Source of the DNA: Elusimicrobiota bacterium
GTDB lineage: Bacteria; Elusimicrobiota; Elusimicrobia; F11
Assembly (NCBI GenBank): GCA_044221725.1
Contig: JBGAON010000003.1
Coordinates: 384,001 to 448,000 of the forward strand
DNA length: 64,000 bases
Direction of reading: 5' to 3'
Part shown: positions 40,458 through 57,901 of the stretch, piece by piece
Layout of the letters: each line of letters opens with the position of its first letter
Position numbering within the stretch: the stretch's first letter is position 1
Position numbers and translations under genes: made by a program
The notes under the pieces: model-generated
Told to the model about the DNA's origin: nothing
Seen by the model: only the letters and a program-made list of their open reading frames with translations
Databases searched by the model: none

Positions 40458-41959
40458 TTGGTCTTAAAAAATTTCGCGATTTAACGATTAATGAAAAAAT
40501 TGGTCGCGCTATTCTTTACACGAGTCTGTTGGCGCTGTTGATTTCATCGGGCAGTATCATTGTGTTTGAATATTTTGCGTTTCGTCGCGCGGCGCTCGAT
40601 AATCTTGTCTTCACCGGCGAAATCATTGGTAGCGGAATAACCGGGGCCGTTGCTTTTGGCGACGCCGCGGCGGCCGATCTCGTTCTTTCCCGCTTGAGCG
40701 ATCAACCATCGATCATCGCGGCGCAGGTGTACGACAATCAAGGCAAGCCGTTCGCGACGTACGTGCGATCGAACGACAATTTCGGTTTCCCCTCGGTTCC
40801 CTTTGGGGACAAAAAGTTCATCGCCGGCGGACATTTAAAATCGTTTCAGGGTATTTACTACCGAAAAGATCGGATTGGAACAATTTATTTGGAATCCGAT
40901 ATGCGGCGTGTTCACCGGCGGCTCACGCGCTACAGCGTGATTGTGTTAACCGTGCTTTTGCTTCTTTTGCCGTTCGTCTATCTTGTGTCGAAACTAATGG
41001 AGAAATTAATTTCCGATCCGTTGCGCGATTTGGCGGTCGTGGCCGAACAAATCGCAACGAAAAAGACGTACACGCTTCGGGCGACTTACAACGCGCGCGA
41101 TGACATTGGGCGATTGATCCAAGCATTTAATTACATGTTGGATTCCGTCGACACGCGCGACAAAAAACTTGTGCAACAAGCCGAGGAATTGTGGCGATCG
41201 AACAAGGAATTGGAGCAGTTCGCGTACATCAGTTCCCATGACTTGCAAGAACCTTTGCGAAAGATCACGACGTACTCCCAACTCTTGGAGATGGAATACA
41301 AAGACAAGATACAGGGTAACGGTCAGCGTTTCATTAACAATATTTGCACCTGTGTCGATCGCATGAGAAATCTTATCGATGATTTGTTGGCCTACTCGCG
41401 CGCAACCCGCGCGGAACAAAGAATTGAAAAGATTGATCTGCGCCAGGTTTTGGCCGAAATCATCAATGATTTGGAATTTTCAATTAAAGAAAACAACGCA
41501 CGCGTTGTTTTCGACACGTTGCCCATCGTTCAAGGCAATGTGTTTCAGATGAAGCAATTGTTTCAAAATCTCATTTCAAACGCGATTAAATTTCATGGCG
41601 CCGAACCACCGCTGGTTCGTGTGACAGGCCGGCAAGAAGACCACAAATGGGTGTTTGGCGTGCACGACAATGGGATCGGAATTGAGTCACGTTACTTCGA
41701 GCAGATTTTTAAAGTCTTCCAGCGGTTGCACCGACGCGAAATCTATCCGGGAACGGGCATCGGCCTCGCGATTTGCAAAAAAATCGTCGAGCAATACGGT
41801 GGAACGATTTGGATTGAATCAACCCCCGGAAAAGGGTCGACCTTTTACTTTACGTGGCCGCTCGAAGTGACTCCGTCTTTACTCGTTCCGAGCGCGACGG
41901 CACCAAAAGTGATCGATGGAAATGCATCCGGATCCGTGCACGATCAAGTACAAAAGTAG
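40454..41959 (+). CDS. Membrane sensor histidine kinase (periplasmic sensor, HAMP, HisKA, HATPase)
   Basis: Two TMs, HAMP, SHDLQEPLR, QNLISNAIKF, DNGIGI, GTGIGL. Confidence 0.93.
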   Translation: MIGLKKFRDLTINEKIGRAILYTSLLALLISSGSIIVFEYFAFRRAALDNLVFTGEIIGSGITGAVAFGDAAAADLVLSRLSDQPSIIAAQVYDNQGKPFATYVRSNDNFGFPSVPFGDKKFIAGGHLKSFQGIYYRKDRIGTIYLESDMRRVHRRLTRYSVIVLTVLLLLLPFVYLVSKLMEKLISDPLRDLAVVAEQIATKKTYTLRATYNARDDIGRLIQAFNYMLDSVDTRDKKLVQQAEELWRSNKELEQFAYISSHDLQEPLRKITTYSQLLEMEYKDKIQGNGQRFINNICTCVDRMRNLIDDLLAYSRATRAEQRIEKIDLRQVLAEIINDLEFSIKENNARVVFDTLPIVQGNVFQMKQLFQNLISNAIKFHGAEPPLVRVTGRQEDHKWVFGVHDNGIGIESRYFEQIFKVFQRLHRREIYPGTGIGLAICKKIVEQYGGTIWIESTPGKGSTFYFTWPLEVTPSLLVPSATAPKVIDGNASGSVHDQVQK

Positions 41960-42325
41960 AACAATATAAAGGTACTCGGACATCGCAAAAAGGTCTCCGA
42001 GTTCACTGATGTCTTTCATTTTGGCCGTGAAGATCGCAACCACCATCGTTCCAATCAGCGGAATGGACGCGAAACGCGTGAAAAGTCCCAACAACACCAA
42101 CAATCCGCAACCAAATTCGACGCAGGCGACGAATGGAGCTTGAATGTTTGCCGCCGGAATGCCGAGCTCGGTAAAAAACTCGACGACTTTATCCAGGTGA
42201 TGAAGTTTTCCCCATCCCGACTGGATGAAAATGTAACCAATCGTTACACGGGCCAACACGGCCGGCAACCAACCTAATTTGCTGCAAATGTTTCGAAAAC
42301 GACTTGCGATGCCATTATTATCCAT
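41879..42325 (-). CDS. DoxX family membrane protein
   Basis: RVTIGYIFIQSGWGK, EFGCGLLVLLGLFTR, G.ISID; AGGAGG upstream. Confidence 0.9.
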   Translation of the reverse strand: MDNNGIASRFRNICSKLGWLPAVLARVTIGYIFIQSGWGKLHHLDKVVEFFTELGIPAANIQAPFVACVEFGCGLLVLLGLFTRFASIPLIGTMVVAIFTAKMKDISELGDLFAMSEYLYIVLLLYLIVHGSGCISIDHFWCRRARNE

Positions 42326-42394
42326 TCCGATCCTCCTGCTTCAATCACACTGCGCTGTATGTTAGCGAGGCGGGCCCTTCTTATCAAATTAATT

Positions 42395-43681
42395 CTATTG
42401 CGAACGTTCGCGAGCGGCCAAATCCTTTAATGACATGCCTTCCTCATTTTGCCGCGAGCGGTGTTTGCTGCTACCAATTCTTTGCGAATGATAAATGCCG
42501 GCGTGCCCGGAAAACAAATAGGCTGATACGCAGGCGACCGCCATATAGATGGCGGATTCATGCCCGAAGAGTTCGATTCCCATGAGCGTGCAAGCGAGCG
42601 GTACGTTGGCGGCGCCCGCAAAAATTGCTGAAAAGCCCATGCCCGCCAAGAGTGGCATTGGTAGCGGAATTAATCGTGACAGCGCGTTTCCGAGCGTCGC
42701 ACCGATGAAAAATAGAGGCGTGACTTCCCCTCCCTTGAAACCGGATCCGAGCGTCAACACGGTCGTGAAAAATTTCCCCGCGAAATCCCAGGGCGGCAAG
42801 CGTTCGTCAAATGCACCGTGAATCACCGGAAGGCCAAGCCCAATGTAGCGTGTTGACTGCGTTAGAAAAACAAGAAGCGCCACAACGATTCCGCCAATGA
42901 ACGGCCGCAGCGGTGGGTAGCTCACATTTTTCTTGAAGGCCGCATCAACACCGTGCGCCGCTTTTGCAAAGAGCATTCCAACAATTCCAAACAGAATGCC
43001 AGCGACGACCGCCCAGCAAAGCCCGACCGGAGTCACGTTTGGACTTAACGGAATTTTGTACATGGTGTGCTGAACGCCGAGCAGTGCTGCGATCCAATGT
43101 CCGACGATGGAAGCGACCAAGCACGGAAACAATGCCTCGTACCGAAGCCGACCAATCGCAAGCACTTCAAGTCCAAAGACCGTCCCCGCCAAAGGGGTGC
43201 CAAACACGGAGGCAAATCCGCCGCTCAAACCGGCCATGAGAACAATTCGCCGATCTTCTTTTGATAATCCCAGCGGTCGACAAAGCTGATCGGCTAACGA
43301 ACCGCCCATTTGAACGGCTGTCCCTTCGCGGCCCGCCGATCCGCCGAACAAATGCGTAACAATGCTGCTGACGAGGATGAGCGGCGCCATGAGCAGTGGA
43401 ATTGTGTGCTGCGGATCGTGCACTTCGTCCAAAATGAGGTTGTTGCCGGCTTCGACGTCTTTGCCGATTTTGTGATACGTCCAGCCAACGACGAGTCCAG
43501 CGACGGGCAAACATGCGATGATCCAAACATGTTGCTCGCGCCAATGCGTGACCCGATCAAGTGATTTAAGAAACAGCGCGGAGGCGAGACCAGCAAAAAT
43601 ACCGATCACGGATGCGATCAGCAACCACTTAATCACATCGGGAAATACATCAAACTGTTCGTAGCGGTGAGGGATCTTCAT
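42395..43681 (-). CDS. CLC-F type fluoride/proton antiporter (EriC family)
   Basis: CLC-F signatures GNNLI, GREGT and GEVTP. Confidence 0.88.
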   Translation of the reverse strand: MKIPHRYEQFDVFPDVIKWLLIASVIGIFAGLASALFLKSLDRVTHWREQHVWIIACLPVAGLVVGWTYHKIGKDVEAGNNLILDEVHDPQHTIPLLMAPLILVSSIVTHLFGGSAGREGTAVQMGGSLADQLCRPLGLSKEDRRIVLMAGLSGGFASVFGTPLAGTVFGLEVLAIGRLRYEALFPCLVASIVGHWIAALLGVQHTMYKIPLSPNVTPVGLCWAVVAGILFGIVGMLFAKAAHGVDAAFKKNVSYPPLRPFIGGIVVALLVFLTQSTRYIGLGLPVIHGAFDERLPPWDFAGKFFTTVLTLGSGFKGGEVTPLFFIGATLGNALSRLIPLPMPLLAGMGFSAIFAGAANVPLACTLMGIELFGHESAIYMAVACVSAYLFSGHAGIYHSQRIGSSKHRSRQNEEGMSLKDLAARERSQ

Positions 43682-43714
43682 TCCGGACTTAAATAAGATA
43701 TTCGTCCGCTGATT

Positions 43715-45859
43715 TCAATTCGTCTTAGCTTCTTCGCGGATGGGAAGCGTGAAGTAAAATGTTGAACCTTTGCCGAGATAGGAATTAGCCCAAATTTTCC
43801 CACCCTCTTTTTCAATAATTTTTTTGCAAATAGCCAAGCCGATTCCGCTTCCCGGCTTACCGGCGGTGTGGTCTCTGTGGAAGATGTTGAAAATCTGTTT
43901 TGCCTGTTTTGGGTCAAAACCAATTCCATTGTCTTTAATTCGAAAAACCCAAAAGCCGCCGTCCCGTCTGGCGGAAATATTAATTGTTGCCTGTTCCTTC
44001 CAACAGTATTTTATGGCGTTCCCGATTAGATTCGTCATGAGTTGAATCATGTGAACTTTGCGGGCATTGATCGTTGGAAGCTCCGTCGTGCTGATGTTCA
44101 GGCGAACTCCCTGGCTTTGAACGCCAAGGTCCTCAAGAGTCTCGCGCACAACGTCGCGCATCTCAACCGGTCCGAATCCTTCCGAAGTTCGCGTGGCCTT
44201 CGAATATTCCAGTAGATCGGCAATGAGGCGACTCATTTTCAAAGCGGAATTTTGCATCCGACCTAGGTGTTCCAGCGCATTGGTGGCGTTTGATTGGAAA
44301 TTTGTCGCAACCAAATCGCCGAACGAGATAATCTTTCTCAACGGCGATTGCAGGTCATGAGAAACCATATGAGCGAAATCTTCGAGATCTTTATTTGATT
44401 TGGCCAGTGTGTCCGCGTGTGTCCTCAAAATTTCGTCCATGCGAAAACGTTCAATGAAATCGACCGCCTGCCGCACGTACAGGTTCAGTCGACGCAAATC
44501 CTGTTCGTTCGAGCGGTGCGGAGATCGCCAGTGCGTCGACAGAATTCCGATGAGTTTGCCATTTGATCCCACGAGCGGGGTCGATTGGACGCCACGGTAT
44601 CCGGCTGCCCGAGCAACTGACCGCAGCGGCTCGTACTCAGCATCCGTCTCCACATCCTCAATGACGACCCGTTGACCGCCACGCAATGCTCGTCCACAGG
44701 CCGATGTGTCCTCTGAGCTCACTTCCCTAAAAAAATCGAGAAAATCCTGCTTACTGTCTTGGTGCGACGCAATTCGAAGCACTCGACCGTCGGAATTAAG
44801 TAACTGAATGTTGCCCATGTCAGCCCCGAGTATTTCAATGCCCGCTGCGAGAATTTCATCGAGTCCCTTTTGGAAATCACGTATCTGCCACAATCGTGAT
44901 CCAAGCGTATTAAGCTTGGCGAGGGCTTCCGTTTCCATTTTCAAGTGATCCTCGCTCGCGAGAAGCGCCTGTTCGGCATTTTTGCGGCCAATTAAATTGG
45001 CCGTTTGGCGAACGAGCATATCCAGTAACCAAAGTTCGTGTTCGTCCGGAAAGTGAAGTTCTGTCCACTGGGTTGTGAGAACACCAAGAAGGGCGCCCGT
45101 GTGGCTAATCATCGGAGTCGACTGAATCGACCGTATCCCGGCTTTGCGCAAAATCTCGAGAGAACGCGTGCTGCGAAACATGTCGCTCTTTTCTATGTCG
45201 GCAATGACCACTCTTTGAGATTTCTTTAAAGCTTCTCCGCAGACAGACGCGACTTTTTCGGCTTCTGCGAAATACTCAAGAAAATATGGATCATGCGCAT
45301 GGTGAGCCACAATCCGCAGAGAATCCCCCTCCACTATCTGCAATGTGCCCTTGGGGGCTTTCATGAGCAAAACGGCGGTATCCATGACGTCCTGATACAT
45401 GGACTGCGATTCTTGGGCGTTCAGGAGTTTTTCGCTAAGAGTGTGTAGCTCAGTCAGAGCAGTTAAGTCCGCCGCTTTCCGATCTGCGGCCGCCTGCAAG
45501 CGTTGGTTGGACCGGCGGACCATCTCGCCCAGGCAGATAACAATGCCCGAGGAGATCACATAACCACTTAGCAGACGCCATAAGACCGGGAAGGGCACAT
45601 GGAAAGAATTTCTCGGGAAGATTAAAAAATAGTCCGCGACCAGGAATCCGATAATCGCTGCAAGAGTTGCGGGTTTCCAGCCGCCAATCAAGACAGACAA
45701 CCCCAGTCCACCAAAGAGAAAGACAAATACGAAATGCTCTTCCAGAAATGGATCGTTTAGCCACCGGAAGAGGAGCGCTAGTCCAACCATCGCGAGTGCA
45801 GCGCAATAACGCAAAATGGGATGCTTTTTCAGAACTTCGTTAGGGTTCGTTGTGGCCAC
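43715..45859 (-). CDS. Histidine kinase with DUF4118-like membrane domain and two GAF domains
   Basis: N-terminal TMs; two similar GAF units (CG.AL...RVVI.D, QSTP...G.L.THW); SHDLQSPLR; DNGIG; GSGIGL. Confidence 0.9.
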   Translation of the reverse strand: MATTNPNEVLKKHPILRYCAALAMVGLALLFRWLNDPFLEEHFVFVFLFGGLGLSVLIGGWKPATLAAIIGFLVADYFLIFPRNSFHVPFPVLWRLLSGYVISSGIVICLGEMVRRSNQRLQAAADRKAADLTALTELHTLSEKLLNAQESQSMYQDVMDTAVLLMKAPKGTLQIVEGDSLRIVAHHAHDPYFLEYFAEAEKVASVCGEALKKSQRVVIADIEKSDMFRSTRSLEILRKAGIRSIQSTPMISHTGALLGVLTTQWTELHFPDEHELWLLDMLVRQTANLIGRKNAEQALLASEDHLKMETEALAKLNTLGSRLWQIRDFQKGLDEILAAGIEILGADMGNIQLLNSDGRVLRIASHQDSKQDFLDFFREVSSEDTSACGRALRGGQRVVIEDVETDAEYEPLRSVARAAGYRGVQSTPLVGSNGKLIGILSTHWRSPHRSNEQDLRRLNLYVRQAVDFIERFRMDEILRTHADTLAKSNKDLEDFAHMVSHDLQSPLRKIISFGDLVATNFQSNATNALEHLGRMQNSALKMSRLIADLLEYSKATRTSEGFGPVEMRDVVRETLEDLGVQSQGVRLNISTTELPTINARKVHMIQLMTNLIGNAIKYCWKEQATINISARRDGGFWVFRIKDNGIGFDPKQAKQIFNIFHRDHTAGKPGSGIGLAICKKIIEKEGGKIWANSYLGKGSTFYFTLPIREEAKTN

Positions 45860-46144
45860 CTCGCCGCCGCAAATTTACCTGCCCAGCGCGCAACGCATGA
45901 ATGCCAAGGCAGGACAGCTAAATTTTATCACACGCACAAGAGGCACAGACTTGGACTTGTCGGATTATTATTCCGATCGCACGGGTGCGAAGGGTAACTA
46001 TGTGCCAGGAATGATCAATCCGTCCCCATTCGACGCTTATGTCGAGTTCGTCAAAGCGTTGTTTTATGCCTTCTACGTCAATTGTCTTCTAAATCTTCTA
46101 GCCCGAGAGCAATGGAGTCAACCGCGTTTTTTAACAGCTCATGG

Positions 46145-46786
46145 TCAACGCTCGCCATTGCCTTCCCGCTCATTGGAGCACTCTTTGATGAATTGAATTA
46201 GTTCACGATAATTTTCTTGATCCGCACTCTTCATCGACTTGATGTATCGCTTGCGGACGTCGTCCCCTCGTTCCATGCGTTGAATTTGTGGCCATTGTGG
46301 CAGAGGATTTTTTCTCGAACGGAAAAAGATATCGGTCATTAGTCTGGCATGACGGCCGTTCCCGTTCTTGAAAGGGTGAACCTTCGTCAGTCGATTTTGA
46401 AGACGCGCAGCGATTTCCAAAATCGGCATCGAAGCTTTCGGAGAATTCCAAAACACAAAGTCGCCGCAGAGCACCTTCACCTGTTCGGGCACTTTGTGCC
46501 AGTCGACGCCCATGTTCACGTTTCCCGTGCGATATTTGCCCGCCCAATCCCAAATCTCACCGAACATATCCAAGTGAACACGACGGATAAATTCTTCTGT
46601 AAGCCATGTGCCGTCGGCAGCTTTTCGTCGAGCGCGATGGACGTGCTTCTCATAGGCACGGTCAATTGCTTCTAACTCCGCAGCATCACGAGCGCGTTTA
46701 TCTGCGAGTTGTGGCTGAATAAGGCCGGATTCGTCGTCGCCGGCCGTTGCGCCAGCTGTCTTTGAATCGTCAGTCATTTTTGTCAC
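46145..46786 (-). CDS. Mobile mystery protein B (Fic domain)
   Basis: MFGEIWDWAGKYR and Fic motif HPFKNGNGRHAR; overlaps the upstream HTH gene. Confidence 0.88.
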   Translation of the reverse strand: MTKMTDDSKTAGATAGDDESGLIQPQLADKRARDAAELEAIDRAYEKHVHRARRKAADGTWLTEEFIRRVHLDMFGEIWDWAGKYRTGNVNMGVDWHKVPEQVKVLCGDFVFWNSPKASMPILEIAARLQNRLTKVHPFKNGNGRHARLMTDIFFRSRKNPLPQWPQIQRMERGDDVRKRYIKSMKSADQENYRELIQFIKECSNEREGNGER

Positions 46787-47237
46787 GCCACAAACGTTCG
46801 CGTTTGTCTTGGATTATCTCGTCCGTTCGTTTCTCTAGGAGACTCTTAAATATCTCGGAATCCGGCGCCTGCTCTTCAAGAGCCATTGTTCCCATGGACT
46901 GTTTGAGTCGTCGTAAGGCCACGGCACGCGCACGATCGCGCAACAAGTCTTCGAGCGGCTTGATTGGGCGTGGCTGTACAACGAGGTCAGACGATAGCGC
47001 CTTGAATACTTTTTTTAGGGTGCTGATTTGCGGATCGATCTTTCCGGCTTCGATACTTGCGATATGCGACTGTGGCATCTTCGCTCGTTTTGCGAGTTCG
47101 GCTTGAGTCATTCGAAGGGAGGTTCGAAGTATGCGAACCCAATCGGAAAAAGACGGGGCCCATGTCGGCTGCTCATTTTGAGTCGCCAAGTGGGAAAGAG
47201 AAAGGTCCTCCACGATGTTTAATTTTTTTCGTCTCAT
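46770..47237 (-). CDS. Mobile mystery protein A (XRE HTH)
   Basis: WVRILRTSLRMTQAELAKR HTH; TMALEEQ and terminal LW; paired with the Fic gene. Confidence 0.85.
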   Translation of the reverse strand: MRRKKLNIVEDLSLSHLATQNEQPTWAPSFSDWVRILRTSLRMTQAELAKRAKMPQSHIASIEAGKIDPQISTLKKVFKALSSDLVVQPRPIKPLEDLLRDRARAVALRRLKQSMGTMALEEQAPDSEIFKSLLEKRTDEIIQDKRERLWRDKND

Positions 47238-47248
47238 AATACGAATTT

Positions 47249-47330
47249 ATATGTTTAAATAGATTATATCAACACATAAAAATATATTTAAGTAGATAAA
47301 ATATAGCGTAAAAATAGCAGTTAAATAGAT
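47249..47330. promoter_or_regulatory. Three operator-like repeats at 33-bp period
   Basis: TTAARTAGAT starts at 47255, 47288 and 47321. The first two lie in 14/16 matches to the palindrome ATCTATTTAAATAGAT. Confidence 0.6.
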
Positions 47331-47551
47331 CATAAGCCGCGGAAATGCCTGAAAACCAATCGAAAATGTGGGTATGAGAGCACATGCGAGATTGTGAAGA
47401 GGTCGATTCCCTTCATAGTTGTTCCACTTCAAACGGCGTTTGATTGGGATGCTTGTGAGGGGCGCGGCGTAATCTGATATGCCATGAAGTGTAAACTACG
47501 TGCCGGGTATGAAGTGTTACCCATGTCTTCGGTATTGACAAAGTACAAAGG

Positions 47552-47598
47552 TTTCGGAGCGGCGGGAATTGAACCCGCGACCTCACCCACCCCAAGGG
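47552..47598 (-). repeat. att site: displaced 3' half of tRNA-Pro(GGG)
   Basis: tttcggagcggcgggaattgaacccgcgacctcacccaccccaaggg; 45/47 identical to 59354-59400. Confidence 0.95.
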
Positions 47599-47639
47599 CG
47601 ATAGAGGTGCTTCCGACGAGTTGTGATTCAAGCATTTTC

Positions 47640-47667
47640 ATTCTACCGGTTCCATATTGGTTCCAGT
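47640..47667. repeat. Arm-type repeat, copy 1
   Basis: ATTCTACCGGTTCCATATTGGTTCCAGT; 24/28 identical to 59239-59266; contains two tandem 11-mers. Confidence 0.75.
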
Positions 47668-47680
47668 AATGTTCAAAAAA

Positions 47681-49828
47681 TCAGTCTAAAAACGTCAGCT
47701 GTTTTGACGTGCTAATGACCTTTGGAAGTCTCCACCTTGAACACATTCGACATCCAGCCTTGGCCCTATTGAGTACGGTGGCTTCCCACTCATGTCCATT
47801 CTTACATTGCCACCAAACTTTATTACTGGAATATGGCTTTACATCCCCGGGTGTTAGTTTCCCATTCATTGTTGGATGCCACTCTTGGGCAAGATGTGGT
47901 TTCTTGGCGGCTAATGATGTCTCGCTGGTAGCACGTCGCCCTGAACAAAACGGGCAACCAGTACCGTTAAACCTATCAACAACCTTTGCGTTCCACTCAT
48001 GGCCCTTATTGCATTGCCACCAAACTCTTCTATGCGATCCGGCGAGTAAGTTTTCAGGAGTTAAGTCGCCATTTATCGTTAGATGCAACTCTTTTGCTAA
48101 TTTTGGATTCTTAATGGCCAAGCAATTATCCGCACAAACTTTCTTGTTACCGCAATACGGACATCCCCTCCCTGCTGATCTATTGCCTATTGATGAGACC
48201 CATTCATGGCCTTTTTGGCATTGCCACCAAACTTTTTTATTGGATCGGAACGTCACATCGCCAGAGGTTAGCGTACCGTTTTTAGATGGATGCCACTCTT
48301 GAGCTAACAGAGGTTTTTTAGTTGCAAGCGATGTCTCTTTTGTTGCTCTCAACCCCGAACAATATGGACAATTATGACCCGCTGACCTATTGTTGGATGC
48401 GGCTTCCCACTCATGTCCCTTCTCACACATCCACCAAACTTTTTTATTTGAAAAAGGTACGACGTCGTGGGCCGTCAGTACTCCATTCCTTGTTGGATGC
48501 CACTCGTTCGCTAATTTTGGATTGATTGCGGCTAAGCTGTTATCGCCGCAAACTTTCTTATTGCCACAATACGGACATTTCGTTTTACTCGCCGTCCTAT
48601 CACTGATTTTTGCTTCCCACTCATGTCCCTTTTGGCATTGCCACCATACCCGCGAATTTGACATTGGAGTTACGTCACTTGGTGTTAGCTTGCCGTTTTT
48701 GGACGAATGCCACTCTCGGGCGAGTTTGGTATTTAGATCGGCCACAGAAGTACCGGGGAAAGGCGAAGGAAGCATGTCTAACAAGTTTTTGAATGCTTCA
48801 TCATTCGCTAACCCAGATTTTTTCAAGTACGCATCTACTCTTAATTGATCGGGTTCGGAGAGAGTGCAAATCTCTTTAATGCCTTTAAGCAGAGAATCTA
48901 TCAACGGTTTTTCTTTCTTCTTTGTGAAATCGAAGGTAACATCATAGTTGGAGATTGTGTCTAATCCTTTTTCTCGCACTCGAATAAGTTTTACACCCTT
49001 TTTTTCAAGGAATAGATTTTTGGCGTGATCCTTCTTGTGCTTATCTTTATGCCAATACACCCCGTCATATTCCAATCCCACCATTAGCGAAGGTATGTAA
49101 ATATCACACTCAACTTTATTGATTTTTTCTCTATGTCTGGTGTCAGGAAAAATATGGCTAAGCTCCGTGTAAATTCTTAACTCCATTAGTGATGTCTTAT
49201 TGGTACAGAAGGAACAACCTGTTCCGCGTCCCGATCTGCTACATACACTTGCTATGTATTCGTGGCCTTTCTTGCATATCCACCATATTTTCCTACCAGA
49301 GGCCGATGTCGCATCATTAGGTGTCAAAATTCCGTTTTTGGATGGATGCCATTCCTTCGCTAATTTCGGGTGCTTATTGGCCAAGCAATTATCCACACAA
49401 ACTTTTTTACTGGCACAAAAGGGACAGCCAATTCCATTTGATCTACTTTTAACAATCGCTTCCCAAGCATGACCTTTATGACATAGCCACCAAATCATTT
49501 TCTTTGATCCAGTCGTTATATGGTCAGGCGTCAAGAATTCGTTCTTAGTGGGATGCCATTCTTTGGACAAGGTAGGATTGAGTGTGGCCAAAGAGTTACC
49601 TTCATACACTTTCTGATTTACACAATAGGGACAGCCCCGGCCATGCTGACTTCTATTGCTAATAATACTCTCCCACTCATGCCCTTTTTTGCAATGCCAC
49701 CAAACCCGTTTATGTGACATTGGGCCGACATCCGTAGGCGACAAGGTGCCATTTTTGGATGGATGCCATTCTTGGGATAGCAAGGGGTGAACTACGAATA
49801 AATTATGCTGACTCGTGACTTTGGACAT
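47681..49828 (-). CDS. Zinc-ribbon (DUF4379-like) repeat protein with central Vsr/DUF559-like endonuclease domain
   Basis: Eight ~68-aa repeats (EWHPxKN...WWxCxKGHEW...CPxC), 3 before and 5 after a domain with S..E...DIYIP...EYDGVYWH...D..K......G..LIRVRE. Confidence 0.85.
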   Translation of the reverse strand: MSKVTSQHNLFVVHPLLSQEWHPSKNGTLSPTDVGPMSHKRVWWHCKKGHEWESIISNRSQHGRGCPYCVNQKVYEGNSLATLNPTLSKEWHPTKNEFLTPDHITTGSKKMIWWLCHKGHAWEAIVKSRSNGIGCPFCASKKVCVDNCLANKHPKLAKEWHPSKNGILTPNDATSASGRKIWWICKKGHEYIASVCSRSGRGTGCSFCTNKTSLMELRIYTELSHIFPDTRHREKINKVECDIYIPSLMVGLEYDGVYWHKDKHKKDHAKNLFLEKKGVKLIRVREKGLDTISNYDVTFDFTKKKEKPLIDSLLKGIKEICTLSEPDQLRVDAYLKKSGLANDEAFKNLLDMLPSPFPGTSVADLNTKLAREWHSSKNGKLTPSDVTPMSNSRVWWQCQKGHEWEAKISDRTASKTKCPYCGNKKVCGDNSLAAINPKLANEWHPTRNGVLTAHDVVPFSNKKVWWMCEKGHEWEAASNNRSAGHNCPYCSGLRATKETSLATKKPLLAQEWHPSKNGTLTSGDVTFRSNKKVWWQCQKGHEWVSSIGNRSAGRGCPYCGNKKVCADNCLAIKNPKLAKELHLTINGDLTPENLLAGSHRRVWWQCNKGHEWNAKVVDRFNGTGCPFCSGRRATSETSLAAKKPHLAQEWHPTMNGKLTPGDVKPYSSNKVWWQCKNGHEWEATVLNRAKAGCRMCSRWRLPKVISTSKQLTFLD

Positions 49829-49840
49829 AAAAAATTTACC

Positions 49841-49865
49841 ACCGGTTCTATATCGGTATTAGTGA
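49841..49865. repeat. Arm-type repeat, degenerate internal copy
   Basis: ACCGGTTCTATATCGGTATTAGTGA; 20/25 identical to 59244-59268. Confidence 0.6.
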
Positions 49866-49872
49866 TTTGGGC

Positions 49873-50964
49873 TTATTTCCCTCTTTCGAGATCAATTTGG
49901 AACTGAATAGCTTCATCAATTCGGTTTTCAGCGTGGGAGGCTAAGATTTCAATTTCGATCAACTTTTTATCTATTTCTAAATACTGATTTATTGCGGAAT
50001 CCAGTGTTGTTGCTTTCTCAAGCAGCTGCATTTCGTTTTTGACTGACGAGAGCATCTCAGAATTATTTTTTGGTTTAAATGATTTATAGGCCTTTTCAAT
50101 CATATTTGTAACCCGTTGTTCAACAAGTCGATATTCTTCGCGCTCTGGTTTGATACCCTCAACTTGGCCGGTTATTCGATAGTTCATTTGTTTTAGATCA
50201 TTTGACAAATCATCTTCGATACCTTGAAGCTCAAAAGCGGCTTTTTTGAAAAGCTCGTCAAGTTCTTGTTCTGTTTTGCAGAAGAGCGAGTTCTCCTTCA
50301 TAAATTCAAATTTTGATATTCGATCCTTAATATCTGCTACAAAAGAGCGCCGCATTTTATCGGTGTCTGCTTCGATACATTTCTCAAAAAATTGGGCAGC
50401 TTCTCTTGCGGCCTTCCCATAATCAATAAAGTTATTTGTCTTAACGAATTTACTTATTGATTTTGATTGGTCTACTGAAATGCCCTCCATGCTGACTTTC
50501 ATTCCTGATCCGCCATTACCAGAAGTGTTTTCAAATAAACGAAGCGTCGAGAGGAAAGCAATACGTGCAATCGTCGAAATGACATTCTGGTTGTGAGTGT
50601 CTCGATGGTATGCTGCATTTCGATAGAAGTTTAAGACTTTAAAAATAATTGCATCTGATTGGGTAAGCAAGCCACTTTTGGACAAACAAAAATCGACTTT
50701 TTCATCAAAAAATCGAAAAACCTTTTGTCGATATTGAGATGAGTATTTTGGAACGGATACTCGTGAAAAATAAATATCTTGATCAAAACTTGAGATAGCT
50801 TCGATAAACATTAAGCCTTCAGCCAGGCTGTGGATCAAAATAATAGCCATGCGAGACTTTTCATGATCATCGGCTTGTATGAGATTACTTACAACATCAA
50901 AATGATCAAGCGATGCTTTGAATCGCTCGAACGTTGGCCTAAAGAGCAAAGCATGTCGTTTCAT
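49873..50964 (-). CDS. Hypothetical protein with HEPN-like N-terminal domain
   Basis: RMAIILIHSLAE helix and R-X4-H motif RNAAYH; helical, charged C-terminal half. Confidence 0.6.
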   Translation of the reverse strand: MKRHALLFRPTFERFKASLDHFDVVSNLIQADDHEKSRMAIILIHSLAEGLMFIEAISSFDQDIYFSRVSVPKYSSQYRQKVFRFFDEKVDFCLSKSGLLTQSDAIIFKVLNFYRNAAYHRDTHNQNVISTIARIAFLSTLRLFENTSGNGGSGMKVSMEGISVDQSKSISKFVKTNNFIDYGKAAREAAQFFEKCIEADTDKMRRSFVADIKDRISKFEFMKENSLFCKTEQELDELFKKAAFELQGIEDDLSNDLKQMNYRITGQVEGIKPEREEYRLVEQRVTNMIEKAYKSFKPKNNSEMLSSVKNEMQLLEKATTLDSAINQYLEIDKKLIEIEILASHAENRIDEAIQFQIDLERGK

Positions 50965-50967
50965 GTT

Positions 50968-52020
50968 TCAATTATTTGAAAAAACCAAATTTGTATCCGT
51001 GGCATTCTTAAGATTGAATTTTTCTTGGCTGTCAGAAAAATTGATCATATTTGCGGCTATTTTTTTGAAATTCGGTGCCAGGTGTGAATATCTTGCTGTC
51101 ATCTTTATATCCGAATGGCCCATGAGTTTCATCAACGTAAATTGATCGACGCCTTTCATAGTCATATGGCTGGCATAGGAATGACGGAGTGTGTGGATAT
51201 CTGCTTCATTGATTCCAGATTTTTGAATTGCCGATGACCATTCCCGTTTCAGGTTCGTGGTGTCCAGAACTCTTCCGGTTGTTCCTTTAACTGACAATCG
51301 TTGAAGTAGATTCAAAACGGATTCGTTCATCGGAACCTCATAGGATTTGCCTGATTTTGTTTTCAACACATGGATTACCCCAGCCTTCGTATCAATGTCA
51401 TCCCATTGAAGGCCGATGAGGTTGGCTTTCCTCATGCCGGTATTGACGGCCATTACAATGAAATCACGAAGTCGTGGGGTCGAACAATCCATCAATGCAT
51501 AAATTTCGCTTTCGGTGAGGTAGCGCGTTCGCTGATTATCTTCTCGGAGTTTTTTTATTCGGCTGGTAGGATTGTCACGAATTTTCCCATCTACAACCGC
51601 CTGATTAAAAATGCTTCGCAGGCACGTTAAGGCGCGGTTGATGGTAGATTTTTTCTTGCCCGCGTTGATCATTTCCGATTTCCACTCTTCGATGTCTCTT
51701 TGCTTGATATAGCAGAGCGGTTTTCCGGTGAAATAACGTTTGAAATCTTTGATTCGATAAAACTCGTTTAGCCTGGGGTTGACCATGTCAACCGACGCAT
51801 AAAGGCGGTAATACTCGTCAGCATAGGTATCGAAAGGGGTTCGGTCGTTTTTTTGAAGCGGCAGGAATCCACCACTATTAAATTTGGCTTTTTCTTGGAT
51901 TTCAAAATTCTCGGCTTCTGCGTACGTTATGAATTTTTTCTTTACGCGTCGGCTTCCTAAATAAAAGTTGGCTTCCCACCTCTCGGCTTTTCGTTCACCC
52001 CGTTTAATTTTTTTGATCAT
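50968..52020 (-). CDS. Tyrosine recombinase / phage integrase
   Basis: TGMRKANL (R), KTKSGK (K), HTLRHSYAS (HxxR), LMGHSDIKMTARY (H, Y); STINR in the core-binding domain. Confidence 0.96.
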   Translation of the reverse strand: MIKKIKRGERKAERWEANFYLGSRRVKKKFITYAEAENFEIQEKAKFNSGGFLPLQKNDRTPFDTYADEYYRLYASVDMVNPRLNEFYRIKDFKRYFTGKPLCYIKQRDIEEWKSEMINAGKKKSTINRALTCLRSIFNQAVVDGKIRDNPTSRIKKLREDNQRTRYLTESEIYALMDCSTPRLRDFIVMAVNTGMRKANLIGLQWDDIDTKAGVIHVLKTKSGKSYEVPMNESVLNLLQRLSVKGTTGRVLDTTNLKREWSSAIQKSGINEADIHTLRHSYASHMTMKGVDQFTLMKLMGHSDIKMTARYSHLAPNFKKIAANMINFSDSQEKFNLKNATDTNLVFSNN

Positions 52021-52026
52021 GCGGCA

Positions 52027-52263
52027 TCATCTCCATTCGTCTCCATTTCTATTTTGGTACGACCAAGGTGATTTTACGGCTTCATCAACCGATGCGGCAA
52101 TTTTTTTATCAACCCACTTGTCTAACTCGATGCGGTCAAAACGAACGGCCCTGCCGACTTTGACAGTTGGAATCGTTCCTCTTCTGGCCAATTCGTAAAT
52201 GGTTTCCTCATGTAAATTCAGGTATTTAGCCGCCTCCTCGGCTTTTAGTAAACGGGGTTCCAT
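52027..52263 (-). CDS. Excisionase-like HTH (HTH_17/MerR-like)
   Basis: MEPRLLKAEEAAKYLNLHEETIYELARRGTIPTVKVGRAVRF; probable start ATG at 52263. Confidence 0.88.
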   Translation of the reverse strand: MEPRLLKAEEAAKYLNLHEETIYELARRGTIPTVKVGRAVRFDRIELDKWVDKKIAASVDEAVKSPWSYQNRNGDEWR

Positions 52264-52306
52264 GTTTATTCTGGCCCTAACCAAATGTATGCCCATTTGG
52301 AGAAAC

Positions 52307-52960
52307 TCATCGGGCCAACCGCCGAACTGCTTCAATAAATCCCAACCCCTCGACATCTGACATCCAACGGATTGCATCGCAATGTGCGCCACAAGAAAAA
52401 CAAAATCCAAATCCGTTCTTGATCCACATCGAGGGGCGTTGGTCTGGATGAAACGGGCATACAATCCGGCCAGTCTTGTCTGGTTCAACCAAAGTAGCAA
52501 GGTCAACAGTGCGGGCACGTTCAATATCGCTGTCGTTGATTCGTCCTGTTGTTTCTGTTTTTGGAAAGGTGAGGAGAATATTGCCGCGATATTTTTTTCT
52601 CAATTTTTCCAACTGATCAACGTTGGAAAGAGTGAGAGATACGAACCTGTCCGCATACGGTTCATCTCTCTCATAGCTTTCGTTATAGGAGTTGTAGGCC
52701 TCGGCAATGCGCTTGGATAGGATAGAAACGCGCTCTTCGTCGCTATCGGCGAAAGCGATTTCGTGGCCGCCTTGAAGTTTAAGAGTGGCTTCCCATTTTT
52801 TGATTTCGGAGTCAGGGTCATAGTCCATAAGTTCGTTGTCGAGCTTTTCCAAGTATTCGACTTCGTCAGGAGCAAAACCGGCTTCTATTCAATCGCGGAG
52901 CCAGCCCGTTTTTTTGCGAATGAACATATAGAAGTCAAGGAAGGCCCGTTCGTCGATCAC
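52307..52960 (-). CDS. CHC2 (DnaG-type) zinc-finger protein, with an in-frame TGA near the 5' end
   Basis: CPFHPDQRPS...CFSCG...F.EAV. GTG at 52960 overlaps the helicase stop and is in frame, but there is a TGA at 52889-52891; downstream TTG start at 52852. Confidence 0.75.
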
Positions 52961-53850
52961 AAAAAAGCCTCTTCGAGCCAATGGCCTTGTTTTTGGTAGG
53001 CGATTTTCCTTCGGTAGACTCCGGAGCGTCTCGCCTTTTCGATTTTGACGAAAGCGCGACCTTCGGTGTAGGAACGTTCGTAGCCTTTGATGTCGGCGTT
53101 AGCTTTGAGGACAGAGGGTAACGGATCGGGTTCTCTGTAAACGACGAACACCATGTCGGCTTCTTGAGCGATGAAGGAGGAGTCGCGAATGTTTTCCAAG
53201 GAGGGCTCGCCTTCTTTTTTCTGGCCTTGGTGAGCGAGGATAAAGACCAAGAGGTTCATATCGACCGCGATTTCTCGTTTGAATTTGCGCATGACCGCGC
53301 CGATGTTTAAGGACATGTTATGCTGGGTCTGCATATCGACCAGGAAGTGAAGGTGGTCGACAATGACCGCCGAGATATTGTGCTTGAGCTTGGCTTCCAG
53401 GCAGCGGGCCTTGATCCACTCGAACTGCCCAGCGACAAGGATATAAGGCACAAAGAGGCCGAGCCGATCTTTGTCTTGGGCGGTGACATATTTGTCGATC
53501 ATTTTGAGCGTAGGGACTTCGTAAGAAAACCAGGCGATGGCTTGTTTCTGGTGGCGCATGAGGCGCATGCCGATGGTGTCTGCGCAAAGCGTCTTGCCGT
53601 TGCCGGTGGGGCCGGTGATGACGACCACCTCACCTGTTTGAAAGCCTTCTACCAGAGCGTCGAGTTGAGTGAGGCCGGTGTGGAAGGTTTTGATTTTTTC
53701 GTCTTGTTTGAAGTGGTCTTGGTGATAGTCCAAAAAGTGAACCATCCGGTCAGAGCCAGCGTAGTTAGTCGCTTTGGCCTCTTCTTCGGCTCGCCTCTTC
53801 CCGTTTAGTTCTTCTTGGATTTGTTCGCTTCCTGCGCCGTGCGTTTCCAT
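52957..53850 (-). CDS. DnaB-like (SF4) helicase, C-terminal domain only
   Basis: GPTGNGKT, FSYE, VIVDHL, IRDSSFIAQEAD, KAR. Confidence 0.88.
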   Translation of the reverse strand: METHGAGSEQIQEELNGKRRAEEEAKATNYAGSDRMVHFLDYHQDHFKQDEKIKTFHTGLTQLDALVEGFQTGEVVVITGPTGNGKTLCADTIGMRLMRHQKQAIAWFSYEVPTLKMIDKYVTAQDKDRLGLFVPYILVAGQFEWIKARCLEAKLKHNISAVIVDHLHFLVDMQTQHNMSLNIGAVMRKFKREIAVDMNLLVFILAHQGQKKEGEPSLENIRDSSFIAQEADMVFVVYREPDPLPSVLKANADIKGYERSYTEGRAFVKIEKARRSGVYRRKIAYQKQGHWLEEAFL

Positions 53851-54596
53851 GAATCCTCCTCCTGTTCCGTGGGTTGCTTTGACATCTCATCATTCCAGCG
53901 TTCCTGGTTGAGCCAAGTGGCAGGGTTGGGTATGAACTGACCATCATCTTTTTTCCATTGGATAGATTGGCTTTGGATGCGAATGGCTTCCAAGATGATT
54001 TGCAGGAGAGTTCCATCCGGCTTGAGCTTATCCCAGGATTTTTTTGCCAATTTCTTGCCAGATTTTTTTGGATAGGAGTTCCAAAATAACAAGAATTCTT
54101 TTTCTGCTTGGATGGGATCGGTTTTGATCGGTTTGGATGGGTTCGGTTTGGTTCCATCCGTTTTACATGTGTCTGACACTAAACTTTCATCTGTATTTTT
54201 TCGTTTCCTGTTTTTATTGTATTTGCGTTGGTAAATAAGATAGCTGGCGTATTCTTTCCAATCATGGACTATATACTCATCGAGCCATCCAGATTCTTGA
54301 AGAGCTTTAATCAACGCTTGGGGGGCACCAGCCCATTTGGCTCCCTTGGCGATTGCGGCGTCACCAAATTTTTTCAAATCCCCATCTTGCCAAGCGTATT
54401 TCAGGGTAAAGTGCCAAAGGCAATGGAGGTGCCCGACGGCCTCAATTTGGCTGATTCCCAAACTATCCATGAGCTTGAATAGCTTCGGGTGTTCTGACAT
54501 TTCGTCGTGTGATTCAATCCATGCCATTGGAGTGATCTCGATAGCTCTGCAGAATCTGGTATACGCGGGAGTTTGATGGTGGTGGAATGTGGCCAT
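53805..54596 (-). CDS. Phage-type replication initiator / replisome organizer
   Basis: MAWIESH...HPKL...AVGHLHCLW N-terminal domain (alternative start 54527); C-terminal FWNSYPKK...FIPNPATWLNQERWNDE. Confidence 0.8.
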   Translation of the reverse strand: MATFHHHQTPAYTRFCRAIEITPMAWIESHDEMSEHPKLFKLMDSLGISQIEAVGHLHCLWHFTLKYAWQDGDLKKFGDAAIAKGAKWAGAPQALIKALQESGWLDEYIVHDWKEYASYLIYQRKYNKNRKRKNTDESLVSDTCKTDGTKPNPSKPIKTDPIQAEKEFLLFWNSYPKKSGKKLAKKSWDKLKPDGTLLQIILEAIRIQSQSIQWKKDDGQFIPNPATWLNQERWNDEMSKQPTEQEEDSWKRTAQEANKSKKN

Positions 54597-54629
54597 TTTC
54601 CCTTGTGGACGGTTTTATGGTGGCCGCAC

Positions 54630-54902
54630 TCATCGGACTTCCTCTGCGGAGTGTCTATGGCCGTTACGCTCCGCTTCAAAGAGGACATCTTTGGTATGCC
54701 GTAATGAATCCGCATACAGACGAGCATTGATTGTCACTCTGCCTGCGACAAAATCCATGGCCAATCGCTCTGCACGTTTCTGCGGTGTAAAAAGAAAATA
54801 AAGTGATCGAGGGTTTTCTCCGGAAAGTCCGTGAAATTGAATTTCTGGGCAGGTAAACAAAAGAGCGGCTGTGGGCAAATCTCTTGTCTGAAAATAACTC
54901 AT
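54630..54902 (-). CDS. Small protein, DUF5659-like
   Basis: FQTRDLPTAALL...YFLF pattern; GAGGAG upstream. Confidence 0.6.
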   Translation of the reverse strand: MSYFQTRDLPTAALLFTCPEIQFHGLSGENPRSLYFLFTPQKRAERLAMDFVAGRVTINARLYADSLRHTKDVLFEAERNGHRHSAEEVR

Positions 54903-55022
54903 ACTTCATCTCCTCATTGCATCCATTTTTAAAGTTAGGAGATGGTATCCAGGGTCAAAAGGCGTTCCTATCCCTGTGTCTTATTGACACTTAAGGCGAA
55001 GGGATGATTTTGGATGGATTTG

Positions 55023-55709
55023 CTATTCGAGAATAGGCTTCTGTATGGTCAGTAGAAAATAAGCAAAACTTAGACGAGCATTGATGTATTGCTCGAATAA
55101 ATTCTCTGGTGGAGTTTGGCCAAGCATCTTTCTATAAACCGACCTCGACATCTTATTCTTAGAAGGAATATATTCGTCTTGCATTGACGATTCAAAAGCT
55201 GTGACAAATCTTTTGGCTCTTTTCATCATGCTTGCATGAATTCTCTTCAAAACCTGATATTTGTCCCCGCCTTCCAGGCCACCATCTTTTGCTTTGTTTT
55301 TGGCAAGGCGATACAGCTCGTTCTCTGCCCAAGCAATAGAAAGCGCATAGTCCTCTTCGATAGTTTTAATGGACAAAGGTGTTGGTGGTTTTACTCTTTT
55401 TTTTCTGAGATTTTTTTGGGGTGAGGTCAATAGGGGTAAGGTTAGGGTTCCTCTTTTATTTAATCTATGAATTAGATCGCGGTGGAAAAATGCATCGCCT
55501 TTACCGTCAAATAAAATAAATTTATTTTGGTTTTTTACAACCAATGATTTGAAATCGTCACTTTTCAGATAATCATCCATGACAGGCATTCGGTGCCGAT
55601 ATTGAAAAACAATATCCCACAACAAAGATTTATAGGGATCATTGATGTTGTCTCGAAGTGGCTGCTTCGGTAATAATTTAAGAAGTATTTCTTCACTTTT
55701 TTTCTTCAT
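55023..55709 (-). CDS. Hypothetical basic protein
   Basis: 228-aa ORF with GGAG upstream; no motif recognised. Confidence 0.65.
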   Translation of the reverse strand: MKKKSEEILLKLLPKQPLRDNINDPYKSLLWDIVFQYRHRMPVMDDYLKSDDFKSLVVKNQNKFILFDGKGDAFFHRDLIHRLNKRGTLTLPLLTSPQKNLRKKRVKPPTPLSIKTIEEDYALSIAWAENELYRLAKNKAKDGGLEGGDKYQVLKRIHASMMKRAKRFVTAFESSMQDEYIPSKNKMSRSVYRKMLGQTPPENLFEQYINARLSFAYFLLTIQKPILE

Positions 55710-55776
55710 CCCATCTCCATCTCAAAACAAAGGCTGCTACCCTTATGTCATTAAAAATTTCCAAACGAACCCAATT

Positions 55777-56445
55777 TTAAGGACTTGTCACCTGTTCGCT
55801 GGTGTGTAGCGCCAAGTCCATAACTACGGGTGCTGGTACTGCATCTCCTTTCCGCAACCGTTGTAATCGTTCCAGCTCGTGAATGGCACGAAAAAGTTGT
55901 CGTTCCACAGTGGTGGAATATCTGTTCAGGCGATCAATGGAGTCGCTCGATGCCAATGATGCCGCTGCTTCGATGATTTCTTGTTCTCGTCGTTCGATTG
56001 GCGCGAAATGTTTCTGAACTGTCCACCAATCTGCTTCCATGGGGGAGGTGTCGCGGTCTTTTTCATAACACTCGGCGCAAAGTGTTTCGGGCTCAAATTC
56101 CTTGCTGACCGATTTGTATCGTTTATTTTCTGCGTCGATTAGATGCATGAAACTTAAATTTTCAATGCGTTGAACCCTTTTTGACTTCCAATAGAGAATA
56201 GCGATTCGTTCCACAAGCATCTCTTCCAAAACCCCGACTGGTTTCAAATCCGTGTGGAGTTGAGACAACATAAAATCGAACTCGGCTTTGTTTTCTTTGC
56301 CAAGAGCGCCTTCAATAACAGCTTCCTTTGAAAGGAGTCCGTGCTGTATGGCGTTCCAACGTGATTTCGCCTTGCCATCTTGTGTGCGAACACCACCAAG
56401 TTGCCCATTCTGCCTGTTGGCTACGATTTGTCTTTGTGAAGCCAT
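55777..56445 (-). CDS. Conserved hypothetical protein
   Basis: N-terminal SQRQIVANRQN..G.RT..GK..S.WNA..HGL and C-terminal L.RY...ERQ..RAI.ELERLQ, a pattern I recall from mobile-element hypotheticals; AGGAG upstream. Confidence 0.75.
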   Translation of the reverse strand: MASQRQIVANRQNGQLGGVRTQDGKAKSRWNAIQHGLLSKEAVIEGALGKENKAEFDFMLSQLHTDLKPVGVLEEMLVERIAILYWKSKRVQRIENLSFMHLIDAENKRYKSVSKEFEPETLCAECYEKDRDTSPMEADWWTVQKHFAPIERREQEIIEAAASLASSDSIDRLNRYSTTVERQLFRAIHELERLQRLRKGDAVPAPVVMDLALHTSEQVTSP

Positions 56446-56475
56446 GTTTCTCCTTGCCTGGCTAAAAAAGGGATG

Positions 56476-57138
56476 TTAAATCGCCACCTTGTTACGCATT
56501 GTGTTCTCCAATGAAATTCTTGTCGCTTTTGGCTGGGGATTTTTCGCCACCCCCAGAAGATTTCTTACGGTGTCCTTTGAAATACCCAGCATTCGGCCAA
56601 TAGCGCGGTGGCTTTGCCCGTCAGAAATCAATTTTACGATCTTTTCTCGATCCACGGGCAGTTTGGGGCGACCAAGCACTTTTCCGGCCTTCCTGGCCTT
56701 GTTTAAGCCCAATAGAACCCGTTCTCGTATCAACTCACGTTCAAATTCAGCAAGCGACGCAAAAATTCCAAACATGAGCCGGCCGTTTGCGGTGGTTGTA
56801 TCCACGCCCTCTCGCAACGAGATGAATGCCACATTCCAAGTGTGAAATTTGTCCAGTGCCTCCACCAGTTGGCGCATAGAACGGGCGAACCGTGAAAAAT
56901 CCCAAACCAATACGCCATCAATTTTTCTTTTGCGGGCGGCATCCAGCAAAGCATTTAGTGCTGGACGCTTGTTCTCATCCAACGATCCGCTCAATCCTTT
57001 ATCCACAAATTCTATTGCCTGCCACGCCCGTGCCTCACTGAAACGCCGTAATTCAATCAACTGGTTTTCACAATCTTGTTGATTGGTACTGACGCGTGCG
57101 TAAATACCAACTTTCCTCATCTCCATTTTAATTTCCAT
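56476..57138 (-). CDS. Serine recombinase (resolvase/invertase) with C-terminal HTH
   Basis: YARVST, RPAL, SRFARS, AEFERELIRER, GRP, HTH. Confidence 0.95.
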   Translation of the reverse strand: MEIKMEMRKVGIYARVSTNQQDCENQLIELRRFSEARAWQAIEFVDKGLSGSLDENKRPALNALLDAARKRKIDGVLVWDFSRFARSMRQLVEALDKFHTWNVAFISLREGVDTTTANGRLMFGIFASLAEFERELIRERVLLGLNKARKAGKVLGRPKLPVDREKIVKLISDGQSHRAIGRMLGISKDTVRNLLGVAKNPQPKATRISLENTMRNKVAI

Positions 57139-57185
57139 CCTTTCTGCATATCGGTCAGATATGCAAATTAAGCCAAAAAAAGGGG

Positions 57186-57353
57186 TTACTTCTTTTCGTC
57201 ATCTACAAAGTAGCGAGCTAACAAATATCGAAAAAGCTCGGCCTTATCCATGTGTCGTTTGCGCGCTTCTTCTGAAAATTCATCATACTCTGATTCAGAA
57301 ACTCGGAATATGAGAGTTTTACTTCGGGATTCTTTTTTGGTTTTAGTGGGCAT
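57186..57353 (-). CDS. 55-aa ribbon-helix-helix (CopG/MobC-like) protein
   Basis: Below the ORF-track cutoff. MPTKTKKESRSKTLIFRVSESEYDEFSEEARKRHMDKAELFRYLLARYFVDDEKK: alternating beta strand (TLIFRV) then two helices. Confidence 0.72.
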   Translation of the reverse strand: MPTKTKKESRSKTLIFRVSESEYDEFSEEARKRHMDKAELFRYLLARYFVDDEKK

Positions 57354-57410
57354 GTGATAAGTATATCACTTAGATATACATTCAATGGTGGGCTCTATCT
57401 TAGATGCGGT

Positions 57411-57794: not shown

Positions 57795-57845
57795 GAGGCC
57801 TCCTTGAACGTGATTTTGAGGGCAATTAGCGTTCATGTACCAGGT

Positions 57846-57901
57846 TATCCCAAAAGCCCTCATTTTCAATATCCCATTTTGGGATATCCCAAAGTCGGAT
57901 A
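57846..57901. promoter_or_regulatory. Overlapping operator-like palindromes upstream of the XRE gene
   Basis: ATATCCCA-TTT-TGGGATAT (57869-57887), an imperfect second copy at 57884-57901, and a half site TATCCCAAAA at 57846. Confidence 0.6.

Follow-up and report, generated by a model that had tools for sequence, protein, structure and literature searches.

A HEPN protein of an unnamed family and a DUF4379-repeat nuclease as probable independent passengers beside the integrase of a tRNA-Pro element in an Elusimicrobiota bacterium

HEPN proteins are defined by a conserved Rx4-6H motif with a polar residue after the arginine, placed at the end of a helix (PMC3710099). HepS of the Salmonella Gifsy-1 prophage is inactive by default, needs its catalytic histidine and has no co-occurring partner (PMC13043305), and Tha-1 is a two-domain, tail-activated RNase (PMC11087260). 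HEC-08 is the DUF3644 HEPN protein EC042_2821 of DUF499 (Hma/BR) loci (10.1101/2024.01.29.577857, PMC3710099), and stand-alone HEPN proteins have been listed as backup effectors of BREX/BR systems (PMC12839542). DUF4379/CapR-like repeats joined to an EDxHD/Vsr-like core mark a large outgroup of homing endonucleases, and free-standing homing endonucleases are common (PMC12350094). Proteins related to both groups are encoded side by side in the window analyzed here, 64,000 nucleotides of contig JBGAON010000003.1 (positions 384,001 to 448,000) from the Elusimicrobiota assembly GCA_044221725.1, where an integrative element at a tRNA-Pro gene carries genes for a predicted 363-aa HEPN protein and a predicted 715-aa nuclease between its integrase gene and its att site.

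A sequence-only reading of the window had proposed that the two genes form an undescribed two-gene defense system. The layout that it described was confirmed, the integrase, 363-aa and 715-aa open reading frames (ORFs) all lying on the minus strand with gaps of 3 bp and 44 bp. The pairing, which would have been a new RNase-plus-DNase system, did not survive the co-occurrence test: adjacency of homologues, set beforehand as the refuting test, was found at 0 of 84 HEPN-family loci and 0 of 27 nuclease loci, which leaves the two-gene system unsupported. The two genes are likely independent passengers in a cargo slot, a putative stand-alone HEPN RNase and a homing-endonuclease-like nuclease, and a probability of about 0.65 was assigned to this reading. 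The features on which it turns are the following, in window coordinates.

50968-52020, minus strand: tyrosine integrase of 350 aa
49873-50964, minus strand: 363-aa protein with an N-terminal HEPN domain (about residues 8-150, including R115-N-A-A-Y-H120) and a C-terminal helical bundle (about residues 200-363)
49840-49867, minus strand: degenerate third copy of a 28-bp end motif, in the 44-bp gap between the HEPN and nuclease genes
47681-49828, minus strand: 715-aa protein with three DUF4379 repeats, a Vsr/EDxHD/DUF559-like core and five DUF4379 repeats
47644-47671, minus strand: 28-bp end motif within the element, close to the integrase-side att, and kept in a sister element
47552-47598, minus strand: att repeat of 47 bp, a displaced duplicate of the tRNA-Pro(GGG) 3' portion
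59243-59270, minus strand: 28-bp end motif within the element, close to the tRNA-side att
59355-59428, minus strand: tRNA-Pro(GGG), the integration target, setting an element of about 11.8 kb

The 84 HEPN-family loci comprised 30 from genomes and 54 from metagenomes, and neither the DUF4379 repeat nor the nuclease core was detected at any of them by ORF search, six-frame profile (HMM) search or tblastn. At least 500 bp of downstream sequence was present at 60 of the 84 (47 clusters at 90% identity) and at least 2.5 kb at 46; among the closest relatives, seven of nine have about 1 kb or more downstream. Many contigs are short, metagenome-assembled genomes are incomplete, and related loci are not independent. 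In the reverse direction, the HEPN family was absent from all 27 nuclease loci, in 24 of which the same repeat profile found the nuclease, one of the 27 having been used to build that profile. Across 200 genomes of the phylum, the HEPN family occurred in none and PF14311 (DUF4379) in 17, both counts being from the same draw, as indicated by the family tallies. PF14311 was not found in nine of ten HEPN-carrying genomes, and the tenth gave weak matches on a different contig; neither family was found in 11 other genomes of the host family. The host carries a second DUF4379 nuclease in another tRNA element, on contig C4, with no such HEPN there. Longer fused forms were absent from 7991 candidates of 724-2065 aa, which is a weak test, and neither the pairing nor the HEPN family was described in the literature searched (open text, without supplements such as the family tables of PMC3710099 and PMC12839542). 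Short contig pieces of the same element were recovered from four sequencing runs, and no element joint was seen in them; neither expression nor absence can be read from such contigs.

The junction between the two genes also bears on their history. The end motif consists of two tandem 11-bp units, and from its position and tandem form it is likely an integrase arm-type site. The copy in the gap matched each end copy at 21 of 28 positions, a score reached in 0 of 500 shuffles, and the presence of such a copy between the HEPN and nuclease genes argues for separate arrival; the simplest history suggested by the sequence would be that the nuclease gene separately entered the arm region. A profile scan of the genome with the end motif returned only the three training sites, and a 20-base pattern of it occurred in 2 of 393 genomes of the class, namely in the window element and at the att end of the sister element. 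Scans for promoters and terminators gave about as many matches as expected by chance (10 versus 10.8; 7 versus 5.7). A single end-motif match in viral contigs lay inside an unrelated coding gene and was taken as chance.

The sister element, found in genome G252, has an integrase 76% identical to that of the window element and the same att at a tRNA-Pro site. Its cargo is a single unrelated gene of 199 aa that starts 2 bp after the integrase stop and is followed by the att arm, with one motif copy and no nuclease, so that the order is cargo-motif-att in the sister and HEPN-motif-nuclease-motif-att in the window element. The slot behind the integrase is variable, the two elements carrying different cargo there.

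The 199-aa sister protein (L215, 1533-2132) is an orphan with an R-H-x3-H motif and is possibly an unrelated HEPN protein. No Pfam, PADLOC or PHROGs match and no homologues were found for it, and hhalign against the HEPN family gave a probability of 0.2%; the ESM Atlas offered a lead, HEPN_Cthe2314 in 12% of one cluster at a score of 0.89. A second relative element (L216, contig C13 of G252) has an integrase 46% identical, a Prim-Pol and a resolvase, and behind it, outside its att, are HipA-like, pRiA4b ORF3 and Fic genes.

The HEPN identity of the 363-aa protein, suspected earlier from its motifs, was upheld by structure prediction and conservation. Both motifs of the sequence-only reading are present, RMAIILIHSLAE beginning at residue 38 and the R-x4-H motif (RNAAYH) at residue 115. 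An R-x4-H alone might be chance; this was countered by an alignment in which R115 and H120 are the only invariant columns, in 116 of 116 homologues, with N116 conserved in 97%. The homologues were gathered without motif selection, and the alignment took 116 of 170 proteins, leaving out fragments, near-duplicates and the 603-aa protein P0102. The AlphaFold model reached a pLDDT of 95.4 and a pTM of 0.90. In the VIA structural comparison, the top seven rows were all HEPN-fold chains aligned to residues of about 8-150 with Z scores of 9.6-11.2: 1wwp (Z 11.2, rmsd 2.2, 112 aligned), 1ylm (11.1), Csm6 6tug (10.7), HepT 8xdj (10.6), 1jog (10.1), AbiV 9bj5 (9.7) and 5yep (9.6). In the model the R115-H120 motif sits at the end of helix 102-121. 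The agreement of the VIA rows and the placement of the motif at a helix end, as in PMC3710099, make the assignment of a predicted HEPN fold with an intact Rx4H sound; RNase activity would follow by analogy with the family. Residues 200-363 form a helical bundle with generic structural matches only.

Neither the protein nor its alignment matched anything in Pfam, NCBIfam, PHROGs, PADLOC or PDB-sequence searches, and no Pfam or PADLOC family matched more than one of the 116 aligned members; the PADLOC check proposed earlier thus gave no named family. Twenty close relatives share 47-58% identity, and the family, unnamed and of about 350 aa, comprises 194 representatives at 50% identity (E <= 0.001). 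Position 45 is Asp in 89% of the family and position 112 is His in 91%, and the clade of the 363-aa protein has His45 and Asn112 together, which suggests, from the sequences of one lineage, a coupled pair near the active site. P0102 is extended at its N-terminus by about 236 residues that match nothing in Pfam, and is the sole fusion seen in the family. In an actinobacterial-type subgroup (L010, L071, L075, L076, L077 and L080), a neighbor of about 180-200 aa with no Pfam match lies on either side of the HEPN gene, and this subgroup and its neighbor may be a real two-gene unit.

The description of the 715-aa protein as eight zinc-ribbon repeats around a Vsr/DUF559-like core was also verified. 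Its closest homologues share 60-68% identity with it. PF14311 matched eight stretches (E 5.5e-154), REase_MTES_1575 matched weakly at residues 232-287 (E 0.011), and PHROGs returned endonuclease families. D242, E253, D255, H260 and K270 are invariant in 77 sequences (the alignment used 76 of the 119 homologues listed), and the last Asp of the E-D-x-H-D motif is the majority residue only. The repeat-core-repeat model had a pLDDT of 91.8, and its core matched I-Bth0305I 3r3p (Z 9.7), NGO0050 3hrl (9.4) and Vsr 1cw0 (9.1), which are tied in VIA. The best structural matches of the DUF4379 repeat are trypanosome mitoribosome proteins, 7pua_Fd (Foldseek E 7.4e-05, rmsd 1.2 over 67 columns) and 6sga_Fd (Z 10.8). 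The repeats may bind DNA, and with these matches RNA binding is conceivable. PADLOC gave nothing of useful strength for the protein, the weak PDC-S69 match having an E value of 0.014.

Relatives of the nuclease lie near tRNA genes more often than ORFs in general: 8 of 12 such nuclease genes in related genomes were within 500 bp of a tRNA 3' end, compared with 37 of 1034 long ORFs of the host genome, where four of the eight represent one tRNA-Met site in one genus, leaving about four distinct tRNA sites, or five with the window. At L135 and L139 the nuclease gene lies by itself, flanked by the tRNA and by 20-21 bp repeated from the tRNA 3' end. L137, L138 and L140 are small elements that encode a large serine recombinase and DUF2924 proteins, and in them the nuclease gene adjoins the recombinase near tRNA-Pro, tRNA-His and tRNA-Val. 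One of these three recombinase-linked genes adjoins type III restriction-modification (R-M) genes. Other relatives are dispersed among phage genes for structure and replication, as free-standing homing endonucleases typically are.

The loci behind tRNA-Met (L135, 5514-9057; L139, 5702-9148) are integrase-free cassettes bounded by 20-41-bp tRNA 3'-end repeats, and L139 holds two cassettes in tandem with a hybrid tRNA-like copy at the end. The second element of the host (contig C4 of G000, 26881-44831; L142) lies between two tRNA-Met copies (80 bp, 98.75% identical). Its DUF4379/CapR nuclease (1028 aa) is encoded 88 bp beyond the tRNA, and the element also carries an MT-A70 methylase, DnaB, an integrase and metal-efflux genes. 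The core of this nuclease is 40% identical to that of the window nuclease.

Under the reading of independent passengers, the HEPN gene is likely read from the integrase transcript across the 3-bp gap. The protein would dimerize through its HEPN domain and stay inactive until the helical C-terminal domain senses a phage cue; once triggered, it would abort infection by cutting tRNA/rRNA of the host, in the manner of HepS and Tha. The lack of a fixed partner in the family fits single-gene HEPN abortive-infection proteins. The nuclease gene probably inserted into the att-arm region on a separate occasion, with the end motif left on both sides; it is most likely maintained as a selfish passenger akin to homing endonucleases.

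What the nuclease does in the slot can be read in other ways. The tRNA/att pattern fits a selfish nuclease that favors att regions or a defense nuclease borne by small islands, and the selfish reading was weighed higher because of the kinship to homing endonucleases and the scattered phage copies. An unlikely but arguable alternative keeps the genes independent and makes the 715-aa protein a single-gene anti-phage or anti-plasmid DNase whose repeats recognize foreign or modified DNA. The integrase-att slot itself, relatives beside type III R-M, HipBA and Fic genes and large serine recombinase elements, catalytic residues invariant across the 77 sequences, the weak PDC-S69 match and a weak mREase_II match in two of seven homologues scanned all agree with it, and they are set against relatives that match homing-endonuclease models and lie among phage genes, and against a window protein with no useful PADLOC match. 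A more specific selfish history appears rather improbable: the DUF4379-repeat Vsr-like nucleases would be att-seeking, free-standing homing endonucleases that parasitize tRNA-integrating elements, lodge at tRNA 3' ends or in att arms and cut nuclease-free att sites, and in the window element the integrase could control the nuclease through the duplicated arm site, 11 bp ahead of the nuclease start codon. If these nucleases do home to att sites, they would represent a new level of parasitism on integrative elements, and nucleases with long targets and modular repeats could be drawn from them.

For the HEPN protein, a role as backup effector of a restriction-like partner (PrrC-style, DUF499/BR) or as a maintenance toxin, perhaps orphaned here, was judged improbable. 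Stand-alone HEPN proteins of this backup kind are listed in PMC12839542, and in one clade of seven loci (76-100% identical) a DUF499 ATPase gene immediately precedes the HEPN gene, with L052 behind a type I restriction subunit. These seven loci are, however, one lineage; the DUF499 ATPase is the commonest neighbor family, no family being found at more than 7 of the 84 loci, and no antitoxin-like gene recurs. Least probable of all, and very much so, is that RNase effector and multi-repeat DNase form one two-gene defense system, perhaps newly assembled. Its genes share an orientation, the 44 bp that separate them contain no terminator-like site, and HEC-08 combines a HEPN domain with zinc fingers in one protein; the two genes are also adjacent in a contig that another study produced (X5 record 19, spanning 49634-50091), but this is the same element. 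The absence of co-occurrence at the 84 and 27 loci, the counts of 0 versus 17 in 200 genomes, a sister with neither gene, the motif between the genes and the lack of a longer fused form all speak against it.

Several observations weigh against independent passengers of the proposed kinds. All 84 HEPN loci were found through one motif pattern, and 24 of them have less than 500 bp downstream; the sister comparison concerns two elements only, the one sister found lying on a contig that begins near the excisionase gene. The VIA Z of about 11 for the HEPN model falls short of the value of about 13 that the tool sets for helical bundles, and Foldseek with the whole 363-aa model found nothing at E <= 0.001, 5yep appearing at rank 30 with a probability of 0.92. 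No HEPN-family member was found in viral contigs, plasmids or phages, unlike the prophage-borne HepS and Tha. A defense-type or mobile gene (AbiV, Shedu, type I restriction, DUF499/DUF1156, NYN, HNH or integrase) lies within 3.5 kb at 15 of 32 scanned HEPN loci, a count with no measured background, and other loci, including those of the closest relatives L002 and L033, have housekeeping neighbors; the scan covered 146 of 164 selected ORFs and 3 others, and skipped three near-duplicate loci and all loci below 200 bits. As for the nuclease, some relatives near HipBA, type III R-M or Fic genes fit defense as well as selfishness, and in 45000-60000 Rfam finds only tRNA and no intron, the nuclease ORF being intergenic.

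The remaining annotated modules of the element are as follows.

52027-52263, minus strand: HTH_17/AlpA excisionase-like gene
52307-54596, minus strand: replication module with a CHC2 zinc-finger protein, a DnaB-like helicase and a phage-type replication initiator
56476-57138, minus strand: serine resolvase/invertase of the element

The att site claimed earlier was substantiated: the repeat at 47552-47598 copies the 3' part of tRNA-Pro(GGG) with two mismatches, and two matches occurred in 0 of 100 shuffles. With its integrase, excisionase/AlpA gene, replication module and att repeats, the element has a satellite-type gene set and looks like a satellite or similar integrative element. No virion or structural gene was recognized among the element ORFs scanned, and no helper-hijack gene (small terminase, capsid modifier or psu) was matched, several ORFs (90, 228, 222, 152 and 153 aa) being without family; a Terminase_3 search of the host's own genome found nothing and is uninformative. 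The two cargo genes had both been called AT-rich, a label that suits the HEPN gene (GC 0.372) better than the nuclease gene (0.438), whose AT content does not exceed that of the integrase gene (0.422), the genome being at about 0.52. Just outside the att repeat, at 46145-47237, lies a mobile mystery protein A/B pair (HTH + Fic; TIGR02612/TIGR02613) with a PADLOC PDC-S04 match (E 1.9e-22), which probably stems from an island that entered this tRNA end before.

The unnamed HEPN family, which has a C-terminal domain of its own and escapes Pfam and PADLOC, is a candidate single-gene anti-phage system, and more candidates can be sought in the slot behind the integrase. The tRNA/att preference of the DUF4379 nucleases is an unexplained pattern.

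Among described systems, HepS (PDB 9oik, 218-aa chain) shares with the 363-aa protein a single-gene Rx4H HEPN on an integrated element and the lack of a co-occurring partner (PMC13043305). It aligned to the 363-aa model with a Z of 7.7 (rmsd 4.6, 140 aligned), a Z that is not specific. The window protein, at 363 aa, has an extra helical C-terminal domain; tail-tip activation, the tetramer and tRNA cleavage are described for HepS. Tha-1 and Tha-2 of S. aureus prophages (301 aa) are likewise HEPN RNases of similar size with one extra domain on a mobile element (PMC11087260); in Tha the HEPN domain is C-terminal and a cognate Ith inhibitor is present, whereas here it is N-terminal and no inhibitor gene recurs. 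HEC-08/DUF3644 shares the N-terminal HEPN domain and the DUF499 association, and the ESM Atlas lists a DUF3644 cluster for the window protein (score 0.85, 61% of members), a lead only. PF12358 (DUF3644) matched 0 of the 116 members, and in place of zinc fingers the C-terminus has a helical bundle; by profile (HMM) search, the HEPN family is not HEC-08 or DUF3644. As for HepT/MntA, no nucleotidyltransferase was found among 149 neighbor proteins (E <= 1e-6, ORFs of at least 100 aa), and the window neighbors are the integrase and the nuclease.

The element shares with the P4-like satellite hotspot (PMC9122126) a variable cargo slot beside the integrase, and differs from P4 in having no psu, in its DnaB and phage-type initiator and in the position of the slot, between the integrase 3' end and att. 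With the CapR/DUF4379/DUF723-repeat EDxHD outgroup of homing endonucleases (PMC12350094), the nuclease shares tandem zinc repeats of about 60-70 aa and a Vsr-like core. Against I-Bth0305I (PMC3239194; 3r3p) the core alignment covered 96 residues at an rmsd of 3.0, the D-x-E-x-D-x-H-type residues being those invariant in the 77 sequences. The window nuclease differs from this outgroup and its homing prototype in being free-standing and outside any intron, in having a central core with repeats on both sides (3+5) and in lying at a tRNA/att end.

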